Shown one piece after another: positions 1 through 4,545 of a DNA stretch of 4,545 nucleotides. Under the pieces are notes generated by a model, which worked only from the letters and a program-made list of their open reading frames with translations, was not told the origin of the DNA and ran no database searches. The DNA is from a virus (Duplodnaviria > Heunggongvirae > Uroviricota > Caudoviricetes). Numbering within the stretch: the first letter of the stretch is position 1; each line of letters begins with the position of its first letter. The DNA is taken from positions 1 through 4,545 of the IMG/VR virus record IMGVR_UViG_2667528155_000011; one strand, given 5' to 3'. Made by a program: the position numbers and the translations under genes.

Positions 1-2
1 GG

Positions 3-209
3 CGGTTTTAAACCACGTCGCTGATTATCTGACGCGTAGGCATAACGGAAATGGGCAATATCCGTCTCCAGTGCATTCCCCGCATCAGAGATAAGCGGCA
101 CACCAGAATAAGGATGCCGCCCACCAAACAAGACGTGAAAAATCAGCAACGCAAGGCCAAAATTATCGTGATTTTCTGTGCGTTCAAAGCCGACAAATGA
201 CGACAACCC
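3..209 (-). other. ORF fragment running off the left window edge, unknown function; weak resemblance to the C-lobe of a Ser/Thr protein kinase
   Basis: Minus-strand frame is open for ~69 codons from 209 to the window edge (...HDNFGLALLIFHVLFGGRHPYSGVPLISDAGNALETDIAHFRYAYASDNQRRGLKP). No convincing start codon or RBS. The stretch DNFGLALLIFHVLFGGRHPYSG loosely resembles kinase subdomain IX (D-x-W-S-x-G...L-x-G-x-x-P-F). Not in the supplied ORF track because it is edge-truncated. Confidence 0.2.
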
Positions 210-225
210 CCAGCTAGGCTGGGGG
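207..225. other. GC-rich hairpin (8-bp stem cccccagc / gctggggg, 3-nt loop), possibly a terminator-like structure at the IS200 left end
   Basis: Perfect inverted repeat 207-214 / 218-225 seen directly. Minus-strand flank is moderately T-rich (ttgtcgtcatttgtcggctttg); plus-strand flank is ttccggaaagc. IS200 is known to carry a terminator hairpin near its left end, but I cannot confirm this is it. Confidence 0.3.
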
Positions 226-263
226 TTCCGGAAAGCTTTCAGCTTTGAGGCCAGTTATTAAAA

Positions 264-333
264 CCCCTTTTGATTTGTTAAAACACCTTGCGGTCTGGCA
301 ACTGCAAGTGTCAAACAAGAAATCAAAAGGGGG
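264..333 (+). promoter_or_regulatory. Imperfect long inverted repeat pairing the tnpA Shine-Dalgarno region (IS200-type translational-control stem-loop)
   Basis: Left arm ccccttttgatttgtt (264-279) is complementary to aacaa(ga)aatcaaaagggg (314-333). The right arm contains the SD aaggggg (327-333), 5 nt before the tnpA ATG at 339. Matches the known IS200 arrangement in which a stem-loop occludes the RBS. Confidence 0.5.
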
Positions 334-338
334 TCCCA

Positions 339-527
339 ATGGGGAACGAAAAGAGCTTAGCGCACACACGATGGAACTGTAAATATCACATAGTTTTTGC
401 GCCAAAATACCGAAGACAAGTGTTCTACAGAGAGAAGCGTAGAGCAACAGGCAGTATTTTGAGAAAGCTGTGTGAGTGGAAAAGTGTACAGATTCTGGAA
501 GCTGAATACTGTGCAGATCATATCCAT
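339..527 (+). pseudogene. tnpA: IS200-family transposase TnpA, N-terminal 63 codons only
   Basis: Translation MGNEKSLAHTRWNCKYHIVFAPKYRRQVFYREKRRATGSILRKLCEWKSVQILEAEYCADHIH matches remembered IS200/IS1541 TnpA through the HxH motif. It then diverges (NNIYHHRGYGQKSG*) and lacks the catalytic-Tyr C-terminal region. The track ORF 288..572 starts upstream, but the SD-positioned ATG is at 339. Confidence 0.6.
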
Positions 528-894
528 AACAACATTTACCATCATCGCGGATATGGCCAAAAAAGTGGCTGAAGATGATGCAGAAGTCTCATCCATAACC
601 AAGCCGGGTGCAGAAATTCATGAGTCTTAGCCCACCTCTGGTGATATTAAACGTGCGCAGGGGGCATAACTGATTCTCGCCAATGGTATGAATCTGGAAT
701 TATGGTTCCAGCGCTTTTGCCAGCATCTCAATGAGGTTCCAGAGGTGATTGTCTCTTCGGGTGTGACACCGGTAGGGCTCACCAAAGGGCCCTATGAGGG
801 CAAACCTACCCCCCAATGCCTGGATGTCGCCAGATAACGCTCTGATTTACATTGTTAATATTCGTGATGCTTTAATAAAATACGATCCGGAAAA

Positions 895-969
895 TGAACT
901 GCCCGGGAATCCTGGAGACTAAACTCCCTGAGAAAGAGGTAAACAGGATGACTAAAAATACTCGTTTTC
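895..969 (+). mobile_element. IS3-family (IS629/IS1203-like) left terminus: terminal inverted repeat plus first 7 codons of orfA
   Basis: tgaactgcccgggaatcctggagactaaactccctgagaaagaggtaaacagg followed by ATG ACT AAA AAT ACT CGT TTT (MTKNTRF) at 948-968. This matches the remembered IS629-type IRL and OrfA N-terminus. Similarity ends at the nnn (970-972); downstream sequence is not IS629-like. Confidence 0.55.
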
Positions 970-1022
970 NNNCGCAAATTTCTCGCCCCTGACGATAGCC
1001 CGCCAGCCGCCTCGCTTCTCGC

Positions 1023-1412
1023 TCAATGGCGATACGCTGTGATGGCGGGATCTGCGGCCACAGCGGTTGCATGGTCACCCCGGTGGGATCGCGATAATCC
1101 ACCGCGTGAATCTTNNNTCTGCNGCAATNCCANNGCGNCCTGGCTATTGGGGGAAAAGTCTTTCAAACCAAGCTGTTTACAGTAAGCATCCCACCACCGG
1201 GAAAGAATCTGGTAGCGTCCAGCAGCCGTTGATTTAAGTTTTGGGTTTAGCGTGACAAGTTTGCGAGGATGATCGGAGTAATCAGTGAATAGCTCACCAC
1301 CTACAATAACGTCGTAGCCGTGATTGCGGGTTGGCTGTCGCCCGTTATCCGTTCCTTCTGACCACGCCAACATATCGAGGAAAGCTTTACGCTGAGGATT
1401 AAGATTTAGCAT
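1023..1412 (-). CDS. R: Phage endolysin, lambda R-type lytic transglycosylase; 3' end uncertain
   Basis: First ~100 residues ([91 protein letters not shown]...) are near-identical to remembered lambda R, including the catalytic-Glu motif AWSEGTD. ATG at 1412 is preceded by GGGGTG. Region 1115-1140 contains ambiguous bases and the C-terminal 29 residues diverge from lambda R; the ORF is 129 aa versus 158 in lambda. Confidence 0.75.
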
Positions 1413-1716
1413 TTTTCACCCCTGTCAGTCGTTCCCAGAAGTATGTCAGTGCAACCGAACCCATCGCACCACTAATCCCCGCTGTCGCGAGAATCATGTA
1501 AATACTGAATCCACTTTCGATACTGTTCAGGCCACCAATAACACCGGTGAATCCCGACACCACTATCTGAGCCAAAGCATTTATCCAGCTCCACGTTGCT
1601 TTACTCTGCTTCACATCTATCAGGTAGCGGACCAGACCGCCCCAACCTGCGATGATCAGCAAAACGAGCCAGAACGCTCCGGCAAGGCTCTCTTTTTCGT
1701 GCATATGAATAGCCAA
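1399..1716 (-). CDS. Putative holin (three hydrophobic segments, charged C-terminus), possible dual start TTG 1716 / ATG 1704
   Basis: 101-105 aa ORF directly upstream of and overlapping the endolysin start by 14 nt. Hydrophobic stretches AGAFWLVLLIIAGWGGLV, WINALAQIVVSGFTGVIGGL and FSIYMILATAGISGAMGSVALTYF, followed by the basic tail [11 protein letters not shown]. Family assignment is by position and topology, not by recognised sequence. Confidence 0.6.
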   Translation of the reverse strand: MAIHMHEKESLAGAFWLVLLIIAGWGGLVRYLIDVKQSKATWSWINALAQIVVSGFTGVIGGLNSIESGFSIYMILATAGISGAMGSVALTYFWERLTGVKNAKS

Positions 1717-1818
1717 TGTTTCGCCGCCGACAAAAGGCCGGGACGTTAAATGTCAGAAATCAGGCTCACGGGGTAATTTAACGACAAAGCACGGAGTTGA
1801 TGCTCCCCGCAAGCCTGG

Positions 1819-1844
1819 AATAAAAAAGCCAGCATGTAGCTGGC
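1819..1844 (-). terminator. Rho-independent terminator (tR'-like) in the Q-to-holin control region
   Basis: Minus strand reads GCCAGC-tacat-GCTGGC followed by TTTTTTATT (stem 1844..1828, U-tract 1827..1819). Confidence 0.6.
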
Positions 1845-1920
1845 AACAGAGGGTTAAGCAATATCAACTCAACAGCTGAAGACACCCTGGCTGGGGTACG
1901 TTGGAAGGATACTCACCGCC

Positions 1921-1958
1921 CAGAAACAGAAAAGCCCAAGGCTTTAAACCTCGGGCTT
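1921..1958 (-). terminator. Candidate hairpin plus U-rich tail (upstream member of a possible tandem terminator pair, or a leader RNA structure)
   Basis: Minus strand: aaagcc-ttg-ggcttt (or the longer aagccc...gggctt stem) followed by ttctgtttctg. Weaker than the 1819-1844 terminator. Confidence 0.35.
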
Positions 1959-2013
1959 GAATTTGGATTACTGCCAGTGCGTACAACATTGGCAAAATAT
2001 CAGATTTACATAA

Positions 2014-2042
2014 AATATATGATTTTTAATCCAGTTTTGCAA
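2014..2042 (-). promoter_or_regulatory. Candidate late promoter (PR'-like) overlapping the 3' end of the Q-position gene
   Basis: Minus strand: -35 TTGCAA (2042..2037), 17-bp spacer, -10 TATATT (2019..2014), predicted start ~2007. A -10-like GATATT and TTGCCA lie in the initial transcribed region (2001..1990), a possible sigma-dependent pause element as in lambdoid late promoters. An alternative weaker promoter is TTGCCA (1995..1990) / AGTAAT (1972..1967). Hexamer matching only. Confidence 0.35.
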
Positions 2043-2715
2043 TATCTTGCTGTGAAAATGTGGTCTTTTGTTTTGAACGTGTTTTCGTTAAAAGCAATAA
2101 AGCTTGGCTATCAAGCTGTAGAAAAATGTGCTTCATTGCAACCCAGCGTTCAGTAAATGTCTCAGACCAGTTTTTTGATGTCACTCCCACCAGTGATGCC
2201 AACTCCTGGTATTCATAGGTCTTACGCCCTGCCAGCTCGTTCTTCACATCCTGTGCCGCCAGCCAGATCAACTTCTTCAAACGTTCCAGTGTCTTACCTG
2301 CAATTTTCCTGGTACCCAACAGAGTCTTAAACTCGCTCCATGCCCACTGCGTTATGGTGACCTGATGTTCCCAGCGAACACTTTCGCTGTAACTCCACAG
2401 CAACCACGCTTTCTGATGTTCTTCGAGAGACAGAACCGCGCGGCGCCATGATGATGTTGAGAACTCGATCGGACTGACCAGGGCAATGGATGAGCCTTTC
2501 GCCCGTGACTGCTTACCGGGTATCGGCGGATTATCCAGCGTTATTAACCTGCCGGTCACTTCATCCAGAATGCGCGGTTTCTTTCGTTTGTATGTACCGG
2601 TATCAAATTGCGCATGCTCCTGCCAGGCCACCAACTGCCCTTTCGTCGCACCACTCAGATCGGCGGTGGCCACCATGAGCTGCTCGCGAACAAACTGTAA
2701 ATATTGGGTATTCAT
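2026..2715 (-). CDS. Putative late-gene antiterminator Q-like protein (assigned by synteny; family not recognised)
   Basis: 229-aa ORF with AGGAG 9 nt upstream of the ATG at 2715, coupled to ylcG by an ATGA overlap. It sits where quuD/Q sits in DLP12-like prophages, just upstream of the promoter/terminator region and lysis genes. It contains no cysteine, so it is not a zinc-finger Q-lambda type. Trp-rich, with a possible HTH near the C-terminus (YQELASLVGVTSKNWSETF). Confidence 0.45.
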   Translation of the reverse strand: MNTQYLQFVREQLMVATADLSGATKGQLVAWQEHAQFDTGTYKRKKPRILDEVTGRLITLDNPPIPGKQSRAKGSSIALVSPIEFSTSSWRRAVLSLEEHQKAWLLWSYSESVRWEHQVTITQWAWSEFKTLLGTRKIAGKTLERLKKLIWLAAQDVKNELAGRKTYEYQELASLVGVTSKNWSETFTERWVAMKHIFLQLDSQALLLLTKTRSKQKTTFSQQDIAKLD

Positions 2716-2852
2716 GCGGCCGCTCCTTTCAGTGTTTTGGCGTAATTTTTCAGTATTCGGTAATCAGTCACGACAGAACCGGAAAACCGGTACAACCGCA
2801 GGCGCATCCAGCGAAGGCGGAGGTGTTCTGTGATATAAGATTCAAACGTCAT
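2712..2852 (-). CDS. ylcG: Small 46-aa protein, YlcG-like (DLP12 ylcG position)
   Basis: ATG at 2852..2850 overlaps the rusA stop; its TGA overlaps the next ATG. Translation [46 protein letters not shown]. Size and position match ylcG downstream of rusA. Below the supplied ORF track's length cutoff. Confidence 0.5.
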
Positions 2853-3211
2853 TCGCCCTCCAGTTCTGTAATGGTCAGCTCCAGCTTCCCGCCTTTAACG
2901 ATCGGCATCTTCACAACGCGGTAATCAACAACCTGCGCATCATCCAGCCAGAAACCTGCTTTAGTAAGTGCGTCAAAAGCGGCTTTTTGCAGATTATCCA
3001 GGTCACGGCGACGGCGATCCGGCATGTGGCACTCAATGCGGATTTTCACTGGCATAGCCAGGCCGATATCCAGCATGGAGCCTTTGATGATTCGGGCGAC
3101 GTTATCGCGGTATGCTTGCCCCTCTGCGCTGATGTGCGTGCGCCCGCGATTATGGCGGTAATAGCGATTATTGCTCGGAGGCCAGGGTAATGTGATGCTG
3201 TAGGTATTCAC
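2849..3211 (-). CDS. rusA: Crossover junction endodeoxyribonuclease RusA (Holliday junction resolvase)
   Basis: 120 aa, [45 protein letters not shown]...[40 protein letters not shown]..., near-identical to remembered E. coli RusA including the acidic catalytic cluster. GTG start at 3211 overlaps the ybcO stop (GTGA). Confidence 0.9.
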
Positions 3212-3498
3212 GCCTTAATAACCCCCTCTTTCAGCCAGATAACCTGTGTTCTCGCCATACCTTCCAGCGCGCATTCTTTTGCATATCCAGCGTCAACAAA
3301 ATGCGTGCGACGGTCGATCTCGTCGTGACAGGCAGAACATGCAATGGTGGCAATAAGGTCTGGCAGTTTAATACCGGTGCCGCACAATCCAGCCAGCCGG
3401 ATATGTGCCAGTACAGACGTTTCAGAATTGCCATTACATACGCCAGGGATTCTTACCTGGCATTCCCGACCACGCGCTGCTTTTCTCAAATCAGCCAT
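3208..3498 (-). CDS. ybcO: YbcO-like prophage protein (DUF1364, putative nuclease with Cys cluster)
   Basis: 96 aa from the ATG at 3498, [96 protein letters not shown], with AGGAGG 6 nt upstream. The track's longer ORF begins at a TTG at 3537 with no RBS. Matches remembered DLP12 YbcO. Confidence 0.8.
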
Positions 3499-3661
3499 GA
3501 CTCCTCCTTGCTGCCAGTCGCAACCATTTTTTATCAACCAGGCTGGCGGTATATCCGAGCAGTGTTGGTATTTCGGATGGCTTCAGCTCAGGCTTACGCT
3601 TACGACGATTTGGTACTCTGTAGATGTGTCCGTTCATGACACGAATAAGCGGTGTAGCCAT
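3491..3661 (-). CDS. ninE: NinE-family protein (56 aa)
   Basis: ATG 3661..3659 overlaps the ybcN TAA (TAATG) and has AGGAGG upstream. Translation [56 protein letters not shown]. Its 3' end overlaps the ybcO start by 8 nt. Below the supplied ORF track's length cutoff. Confidence 0.75.
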   Translation of the reverse strand: MATPLIRVMNGHIYRVPNRRKRKPELKPSEIPTLLGYTASLVDKKWLRLAARRSHG

Positions 3662-4116
3662 TACGCCTCCTGCTTGTCGCGCAGCAGCTGGAACTCGCAG
3701 CTCTGCGGAATAGTCAGGTTGCAGCCAATATTCATCGCCCAGGCTTCAACCTTACACAGGAAGACATACATCTCTCCGGTATCAAGATCGGAGGTATGGC
3801 GTAACGACTGGATAGTAGTGATTTCGCCGGTTACGACATCAACCAGGTCCTTGGTTTCATAACCGAGGTATGTGTGTTTGAGAGCATCTTTTACCCATGC
3901 TGCGGTAGCGAACGATTTCCCCCTGCTGATGAGGTATTCACTGATTTCGCTGTACCACATATGGCTGAGTGCATTCTGGGAAAGACTGCGTTTCTCTCGC
4001 CACGGTTTAAGCACCATGCGAAAGCATTTGCCTTCCTCCAGATAAGGCTGGATCTGCTGGCCGATAGCGGTGAAGTTGCCGCGATGTAATTTGATGCCGT
4101 CTTGTGAGAGGTTCAC
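3661..4116 (-). CDS. ybcN: YbcN-like prophage protein (DLP12 ybcN family, reported DNA base-flipping protein; occupies the ninB position)
   Basis: 151 aa, [154 protein letters not shown] start at 4116 with GGAGGTG 5 nt upstream. Near-identical to remembered K-12 YbcN. Confidence 0.8.
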
Positions 4117-4237
4117 GCTTCACCTCCGCAGAGCTCAAACGCTAGATGCAAAGAATTGCAGGTGCATTTCTGCATCTGTGAAGGGAGAAGAGAGTTTGGA
4201 TTGTATGTGCGCATAAACGTCCCCGTTTAGCGCAGAA

Positions 4238-4266
4238 GTCACCGGAGTTGTTCAGGCTCCGGTGAC
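4238..4266. repeat. Perfect 10-bp inverted repeat (gtcaccggag / ctccggtgac) with 9-nt loop, between the ybcN start and the IS2 end
   Basis: Seen directly at 4238-4247 and 4257-4266. No strong U-tract on either strand. Could be a tR2-like terminator remnant upstream of the nin genes or a protein-binding palindrome. Confidence 0.4.
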
Positions 4267-4288
4267 ATAATTATGCCGTGTTGATTTC

Positions 4289-4545
4289 TAGACTGGCCCC
4301 CTGAATCTCCAGACAACCAGTATCACTTAAATAAGTGATAGTCTTAATACTAGTTTTTAGACTAGTCATTGGAGAACAGATGATTGATGTCTTAGGGCCG
4401 GAGAAACGCAGACGGCGTACCACACAGGAAAAGATCGCAATTGTTCAGCAGAGCTTTGAACCGGGGATGACGGTCTCCCTCGTTGCCCGGCAACATGGTG
4501 TAGCAGCCAGCCAGTTATTTCTCTGGCGTAAGCAATACCAGGAAG
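4289..4545 (+). mobile_element. IS2 left end (IRL onward), continuing past the right window edge
   Basis: tagactggccccctgaatctccagacaaccagtatcacttaaataagtgatagtcttaatactagtttttagactagtcattggagaacag matches the remembered IS2 left terminus and is followed by the insC start. Confidence 0.85.
4380..4545 (+). CDS. insC: IS2 transposase OrfA (InsC), N-terminal part, 3' partial at window edge
   Basis: ATG at 4380 with GGAG 6 nt upstream. Translation [55 protein letters not shown] matches remembered IS2 InsC. Confidence 0.85.

Follow-up and report, generated by a model that had tools for sequence, protein, structure and literature searches.

Three families of Q antiterminator have been distinguished, Q21 (PF06530), Q-lambda (PF03589) and Q82 (PF06323) (Yin et al. 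2022, PMC9388147). For Q82, terminator read-through in a purified system requires a Q-binding element (QBE) as well as a sigma70-containing complex paused at +25, and Q82 contacts the beta flap-tip helix (PMC4914094). The QBE is embedded between the -35 and -10 elements, and the segment of 82PR' from -31 to +30 suffices when transplanted (Wells et al. 2016, PMC4914094). Here, a 4,545-nucleotide stretch of viral DNA assigned to Caudoviricetes (IMG/VR virus record IMGVR_UViG_2667528155_000011, positions 1 to 4,545; referred to in full as the window) was analyzed for the identity of the open reading frame (ORF) at 2026-2715. The protein encoded by this ORF is almost certainly a member of the Q82 family and the late-gene antiterminator of a lambdoid (DLP12-like/phage-82-like) prophage.

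The gene itself is as follows.

2026-2715, minus strand: Q82-type late-gene antiterminator gene, with its ATG at 2715 and its TAA stop codon at 2028-2026, encoding 229 amino acids

An AGGAG ribosome-binding site lies 7 nucleotides 5' of the ATG, and a stop codon is found just 5' of the ORF; therefore, no longer in-frame N-terminal extension is possible. The initial annotation of this DNA, made from the letters alone, had reported a cysteine-free, tryptophan-rich ORF of 229 codons at these positions without giving its strand. The ORF proved to be real, and its product contains 0 Cys and 10 Trp (4.4%). An exact copy of the protein was found in NCBI on 68 contigs under the name 'bacteriophage antitermination protein Q [Escherichia coli]' (P0001). 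The ORF is thus named there already; the gene, its family and its control elements are all known.

The only Pfam match at E<=0.1 was to PF06323 (Phage_antiter_Q; E=9.6e-97, 323.4 bits against a cut-off of 25), in which residues 4-220 aligned with positions 1-217 of the 220-position profile. A full-length PHROG match was obtained to phrog_304, 'anti-termination protein Q-like' (E=5.9e-108), and an NCBIfam scan of the protein returned no match even at E<=1. When aligned with 39 PF06323 representatives sharing 22-85% identity with it, the window protein was found to retain 13 of the 13 family-invariant residues (R10, A16, W90, R91, R92, A93, W104, W126, Q155, W183, W191, L206 and R213), including those of an SWRRA motif at residues 89-93 that is conserved across the alignment. 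The initial annotation had left open a Cys-free Q family or a different regulator and had regarded the protein as impossible to place. It does belong to a Q family distinct from the zinc-binding one, but that family is the textbook Q82 family, to which it is readily assigned.

With the window protein as tblastn query, 73 of 50,697 phage records were matched. The second-best was X92588.1, 'Bacteriophage 82 orf33, orf151, orf56, orf96, rus, orf45, and Q genes', which holds the prototype of PF06323 (CAA63332, annotated as 'phage 82 Q antiterminator'). The two proteins were 94.3% identical over 229 of 229 residues without gaps, and both were free of Cys. Residues 84-203, a stretch that includes the helix-turn-helix (HTH) YQELASLVGVTSKNWSETFTERW, were 100% identical; the 13 substitutions fell in residues 8-83 (9 substitutions) and 204-224 (4 substitutions). 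The match to PF06323 and the identity to phage 82 Q therefore place the protein in the Q82 family as a close allele of its prototype. At the DNA level, identity to X92588.1 was uneven along the gene, at 85% over the first ~260 nucleotides, 98.6% over the next ~350 and 93% over the last ~80. Because of this unevenness, and because all amino acid changes lie outside residues 84-203, the comparison suggests that the Q gene is a recombination mosaic with breakpoints close to the SWRRA motif and to residue 204.

A candidate late promoter overlapping the 3' end of the gene, and the elements that follow it, were located as listed here.

2037-2042, minus strand: -35 hexamer TTGCAA of pR', inside the last Q codons, found by promoter scan and invariant in seven diverged Q82-family loci

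2020-2036, minus strand: pR' spacer AACTGGATTAAAAATCA, which holds the Q stop codon and is the putative location of the QBE (from conservation and the literature)

2014-2019, minus strand: -10 hexamer TATATT of pR', found by promoter scan, with +1 (the first A of AAA) at 2007

1983-2002, minus strand: predicted sigma70-dependent pause module, in register with the 82pR' features of PMC5001585

1922-1958, minus strand: intrinsic terminator T1, with a 12-bp stem at 1958-1932 (+50 to +76) and a U-rich tail to +86

1818-1844, minus strand: intrinsic terminator T2, GCCAGC...GCUGGC at 1844-1828 followed by U6 (+164 to +190)

The minus-strand scan read TTGCAA-17-TATATT at 2042-2014. The 82pR' transcript is reported to start with AAA and to carry a -10-like pause element with an extended -10 motif, GCC at +15-17 followed by AT-rich sequence, and U at +25, with no G past the RNA end; a one-base insertion at +18 places a G at the pause site, so that +24 is G (Bird et al. 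2016, PMC5001585). With +1 at 2007, the window reads AAATCTGATATTTTGCCAATGTTGTA, with AAA at +1-3, TG at +6-7, TATTTT at +9-14 and GCC at +15-17. The pause module is made up of TGaTATTTT at +6 to +14 (2002-1994), GCC at +15 to +17 (1993-1991), an AT-rich segment, G at +24 and U at +25 (1983), and is followed by A, a non-G base, at +26. Since all published position-specific features of 82pR' are in register, pausing is predicted at +25, corresponding to window position 1983.

Conservation of the promoter region was examined in an alignment of the Q 3' end and promoter from the seven loci, which encode Q proteins with 62-95% identity to that of the window. Among loci with Q proteins of 62-86% identity, conservation reached 85% in the block from -35 to -7 (20 of 29 columns invariant) and 86% in the block from -6 to +14 (14 of 20 columns invariant). 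The flanks were less conserved, at 57% for the adjacent Q coding 3' end and 36-55% after +15. This is the pattern expected if promoter, QBE and pause elements are functional and a terminator comes after them. From this conservation and the published position of the element, we infer that the QBE lies at 2020-2036. The sequence of X92588.1, from phage 82, extends no further than the stop codon of Q, and no record of the phage 82 late promoter turned up in the phage collection.

The two terminators both form in the minimum free energy fold of the 193-nucleotide leader (z=-2.9), and 6 terminator-like sites were found in 1650-2900, compared with 1.3 expected. A different hairpin and T-tract was present at the position of T1 in each of 6 other loci, despite sequence divergence.

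Several further observations concern this region. On the plus strand, antisense to Q, TTGC-N6-TTGC occurs just once in the window, as TTGCAATATCTTGC (2037-2050). This site overlaps the pR' -35 hexamer TTGCAA, itself palindromic, and is homologous in position to a phage 434 feature (L001 3166-3179) whose annotation reads CII-binding site and paQ -35. This match is not significant by itself, at least one being found in 57 of 200 shuffles, and no convincing -10 element was seen with it. The best-scoring sigma70-like site of the region, TTGGCA-16-TAAAAT (1989-2016, 10/12), is also on the plus strand, directed into Q and overlapping the pause element; the AT-rich and -10-like makeup of the pause module may be all that it reflects. 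Around T2, the distal leader (1760-1870, minus strand) is 75-82% similar to Salmonella phage UPF_BP1 and phage mEp237, neither of which is among the listed matches of the Q protein, and the leader/terminator segment, as judged from these similarities, appears to have been exchanged independently of Q. In PPompW/Stx2a-associated phages, which have a Q82-family Q of 75% identity, genes for tRNA-Met and tRNA-Lys lie 3' of the pR' leader (L007, PPompW_132418, 481-589); an ARAGORN scan of the window found no tRNA.

These elements can be arranged in a model that follows the published one for Q82. RNA polymerase holoenzyme would initiate at pR' (+1 at window 2007), sigma70 would re-bind the TG-extended -10-like element at +6 to +14, and the complex would pause at +25 (window 1983). 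Promoter-bound Q, assisted by NusA, would then contact the beta-flap tip helix and enter the elongation complex, and the modified polymerase would pass the terminators at +50 to +86 and +164 to +190 into the lysis genes. NusA is reported to stimulate the loading of Q82 on short nascent RNA and to inhibit it on long RNA, and Q and NusA remain on the elongation complex, where they protect about 10 additional nucleotides of RNA (PMC4914094). Because residues 84-203 are identical to those of Q82 and every invariant residue is kept, the function of the window Q is most likely the same as that of Q82, and from this likeness we infer that the allele is active.

A predicted structure of the window protein consisted of a poorly ordered N-terminal segment and a helical core ending in a C-terminal HTH, so that the C-terminal HTH raised as a possibility by the initial annotation was present in the model. 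A Q-like antiterminator fold, with helical core, C-terminal HTH and loop-rich N-terminal segment, was thus obtained. In the comparison with Q21 and Q-lambda that had been proposed as a check, the predicted fold was most like AlpA, Q21 and Q-lambda, and the top structural matches were all antiterminators. Searching the PDB by sequence, with the single protein or the 39-sequence profile, returned nothing at E<=10, Q21 chains included, and no Q82-family structure is deposited there.

A shared fold and kinship of AlpA, 21Q, lambdaQ and 82Q have been proposed from AlphaFold models (Wen et al. 2022), whereas Yin et al. (2022) favor analogy, remarking that Q82 may not form a closed nozzle (PMC9388147). 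The closed nozzle for Q82 is described in the literature as an open matter, 82Q being able to load on long-RNA complexes (PMC9388147, PMC4914094). The model of the window protein is compatible with the published proposal of an N-terminal ring or nozzle at the RNA exit channel. For the family as a whole, we regard it as possible, though somewhat doubtful, that Q82 proteins are very remote homologues of AlpA, Q21 and Q-lambda with the same exit-channel ring or nozzle. The field's question is the structure and loading of Q82 (whether a nozzle is formed, and how loading on long RNA is achieved); it concerns the family, and the window adds nothing special to it.

The amino acid composition that drew attention to this ORF was considered in the same family context. 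With an assumed Cys content of about 1.15%, ~7% of proteins of 229 residues are expected to be free of Cys, and so the absence of Cys is real yet not striking by itself. Since the window protein has no Cys, a Cys4 zinc finger of the Q-lambda type is excluded, and the initial annotation was right that it is not a zinc-binding Q-lambda-type protein; PF03589 was not matched, and alignment of the family profile with lambda Q by hhalign gave a probability of 0.3% (E=0.2). Among full-length homologues, 81 of 219 were Cys-free. The Hafnia/Serratia and N15-like subgroups of PF06323 carry 4-10 Cys each, and 30 of the 39 representatives have Cys at the alignment position of Ser108. Being Cys-free was therefore rejected as a hallmark of the family, and a hidden metal site was likewise rejected, as the 39-representative alignment held no conserved CxxC. 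The notion of a Cys-free Q family thus stands for the close Q82 clade, in which the absence of Cys is a trait, but not for PF06323 as a whole, given the Cys content of its distant members. Although not family-wide, it separates Q82-clade proteins from Q-lambda. The richness in Trp, also pointed out initially, is a genuine family trait, since the whole family shares 5 of the 10 Trp without exception.

Upstream of Q, six genes with the same orientation were identified.

4113-4214, minus strand: orf33, co-oriented with Q

3661-4116, minus strand: ybcN/orf151, co-oriented with Q

3491-3661, minus strand: ninE, co-oriented with Q

3208-3498, minus strand: ybcO/orf96, with a Pfam YbcO match

2849-3211, minus strand: rusA, with a Pfam RusA match

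2712-2852, minus strand: ylcG/orf45, directly before Q

The order ybcN-ninE-ybcO-rusA-ylcG, from which the ORF had initially been assigned to the Q position, was confirmed by Pfam, by RefSeq annotation and by the phage 82 record. The minus strand of 2026-4240 aligned without gaps to X92588.1 at 94% nucleotide identity, spanning orf33-orf151-ninE-orf96-rus-orf45-Q; for the six genes upstream of Q, nucleotide identity was 93%. The corresponding region of E. coli 7CC was 99.8% identical, and its Q gene likewise bears the name of an antitermination protein Q in RefSeq. In 7CC and O157:H7 3-5-1, the module lies in a DLP12-type defective prophage that reads ybcK/ybcL/ybcM ... Q, holin, GH24 endolysin, rzpD, bor ... 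nohD. A 29-bp palindrome, GTCACCGGAG...CTCCGGTGAC, is found at 4239-4267, upstream of orf33, with an insertion sequence (IS) of the IS66-like type starting shortly beyond; it corresponds to the 'possible regulator-binding site' of the phage 82 record (X92588.1 82-110).

Downstream of the terminators, two lysis genes were recognized.

1399-1704, minus strand: holin gene, the first late gene under predicted Q control (PF16083, E=3.9e-21; PHROG 785 holin)

1059-1412, minus strand: truncated endolysin gene (GH24), residues 1-117 of 158 (from tblastn with the 7CC endolysin as query)

The holin gene is intact and 99% identical to the 7CC RefSeq 'phage holin family protein'. No Rz/Rz1 match was found 3' of the truncated endolysin gene in the window. 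Bases are N-masked at 970-972 and at 1115-1138, the latter within the endolysin gene. The expectation of a promoter or terminators and lysis genes beyond the ORF was thus borne out for the promoter, two terminators and an intact holin gene, but not for a complete lysis cassette.

The late operon is cut within the endolysin gene by IS-related DNA. Positions 202-969 matched, at 99.9% identity, part of an E. coli plasmid in which the annotated features are an IS200/IS605 tnpA, a transposase and a fragment of a Zn/Mn ABC-transporter solute-binding protein; they are a patchwork of mobile-element debris beside the prophage. Pfam matches in this segment were a Y1_Tnp fragment (339-572) and, fused to it, a ZnuA-like fragment (472-630), and the only Rfam match was the IS200-derived small RNA STnc490 (205-329, 140 bits). 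IS3/IS1203 transposase was among the listed features of O157:H7 matches whose query range begins at 895, and MTKNTRF, encoded on the plus strand at 948, resembles the beginning of an IS3-family orfA. At the other end, the plus strand of 4380-4545 holds the start of an IS66-family accessory transposase gene (tnpA; HTH_Tnp_1, E=1.8e-15) that runs past the end of the window. In NR1441 and NR2550, ISEc23 (IS66-like) is annotated beside the same nin region. The Q module is thus intact but sits in an IS-eroded prophage remnant.

Because the lysis operon is truncated and its flanks are IS-related, the window Q gene may have no current biological role. A related proposal, which concerns role rather than identity and is compatible with assignment to Q82, is that the gene is an intact-looking, idle relic of a decayed prophage, either silent by now or without a working lysis cassette to control, that is drifting toward a pseudogene. 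In keeping with it are the loss of the endolysin beyond about residue 117 and of Rz, the patchwork that makes up the left 1.1 kb of the window, the IS66-family tnpA from 4380, the location of the 7CC and O157:H7 module in a defective prophage, and the finding that 0 of 5,426 complete E. coli genomes hold at least 80% of the window contiguously. However, the ORF is full-length with all family-invariant residues kept, and its ribosome-binding site, promoter, pause element, both terminators and holin gene are intact. The identical protein on 68 contigs further argues against random decay. On this evidence we consider the idle relic rather unlikely.

Far less probable is that the ORF encodes a conventional HTH DNA-binding activator or repressor that merely occupies the Q slot without processive antitermination. 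The protein is 94% identical to Q82, whose terminator read-through was reconstituted in vitro, and the two terminators between the promoter and the first late gene form the architecture expected for control by antitermination. No Pfam, PHROG or PDB match to any non-Q regulator family was obtained, and the best structural matches being antiterminators likewise opposes this explanation; a confident match to a non-antiterminator family, named in the initial annotation as the outcome that would speak against a Q protein, was not found. The probability that the ORF instead belongs, as a divergent member, to the Q-lambda (zinc-finger) or Q21 family is negligible, given a protein with 0 Cys and hence no Cys4 site, the failure of the suggested comparison with the Pfam Q families to match PF03589 or PF06530 at E<=0.1 when PF06323 was matched, the hhalign result with lambda Q, and the absence of a PDB chain matched at E<=10 by single sequence or profile.

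Four points weigh against assigning the locus to Q82 in full. Nine of the 13 substitutions relative to Q82 lie among the first 85 residues, a region presumed to engage the RNA exit channel. Toward the N-terminus, confidence in the structural model is low, with residues 21-44 and 62-73 at pLDDT (predicted local distance difference test) <50, and this part says nothing firm on a nozzle. The putative match to the QBE was made through conservation among relatives and the position-specific features quoted in the paper. Finally, the operon under Q is truncated, with the endolysin ending at about residue 117 and Rz missing, and the module is flanked by IS-related DNA. Set beside the family match and the near identity to phage 82 Q, these points leave a Q82-family antiterminator as the almost certain identity of the protein. 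Beyond getting the annotation right, the finding means little: this is an ordinary allele from one of three textbook Q families, and the NCBI pipeline has already named it. In practical terms, this copy of Q sits in an IS-eroded prophage with an incomplete lysis cassette.

Several known systems can be compared with the window Q, starting with the antiterminators that it resembles in fold. Pseudomonas aeruginosa AlpA (PDB 7XYB chain G; 168 amino acids) shares 13-16% identity with it, with no detectable sequence relationship, and controls a chromosomal programmed-cell-death operon rather than phage late genes. Q21 (PDB 6JNX/6P19; PF06530) and Q-lambda (PDB 4MO1/7UBM; PF03589) have no significant sequence similarity to the window Q, and Q-lambda has a Cys4 zinc finger that the window protein lacks. 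Within PF06323, the distant members N15 gp40, VP882 Q, PY54 gp43 and Hafnia phage yong2 Q are annotated as late antiterminators and keep the SWRRA motif and the invariant Trp residues, at 23-36% identity and with 4-10 Cys; in N15 the Q-family gene adjoins cro, whereas in the window it lies 3' of the nin region. Closer is phage 434 Q (OL657226.1, annotated 'Q82-like'; 86.0% amino acid identity), which has the block from -35 to +14 in common with the window but differs in one Cys (C108), its terminator and its downstream genes. Escherichia phage PhiR47_2 Q is 94.8% identical, and its whole Q-to-holin intergenic region is 98.9% identical to that of the window. Phage 82 differs in setting, the window copy being part of a prophage remnant on the chromosome, where the lysis cassette is truncated, but has the same upstream genes (orf33-orf151-ninE-orf96-rus-orf45) and, according to the literature, the same pR' and pause architecture.
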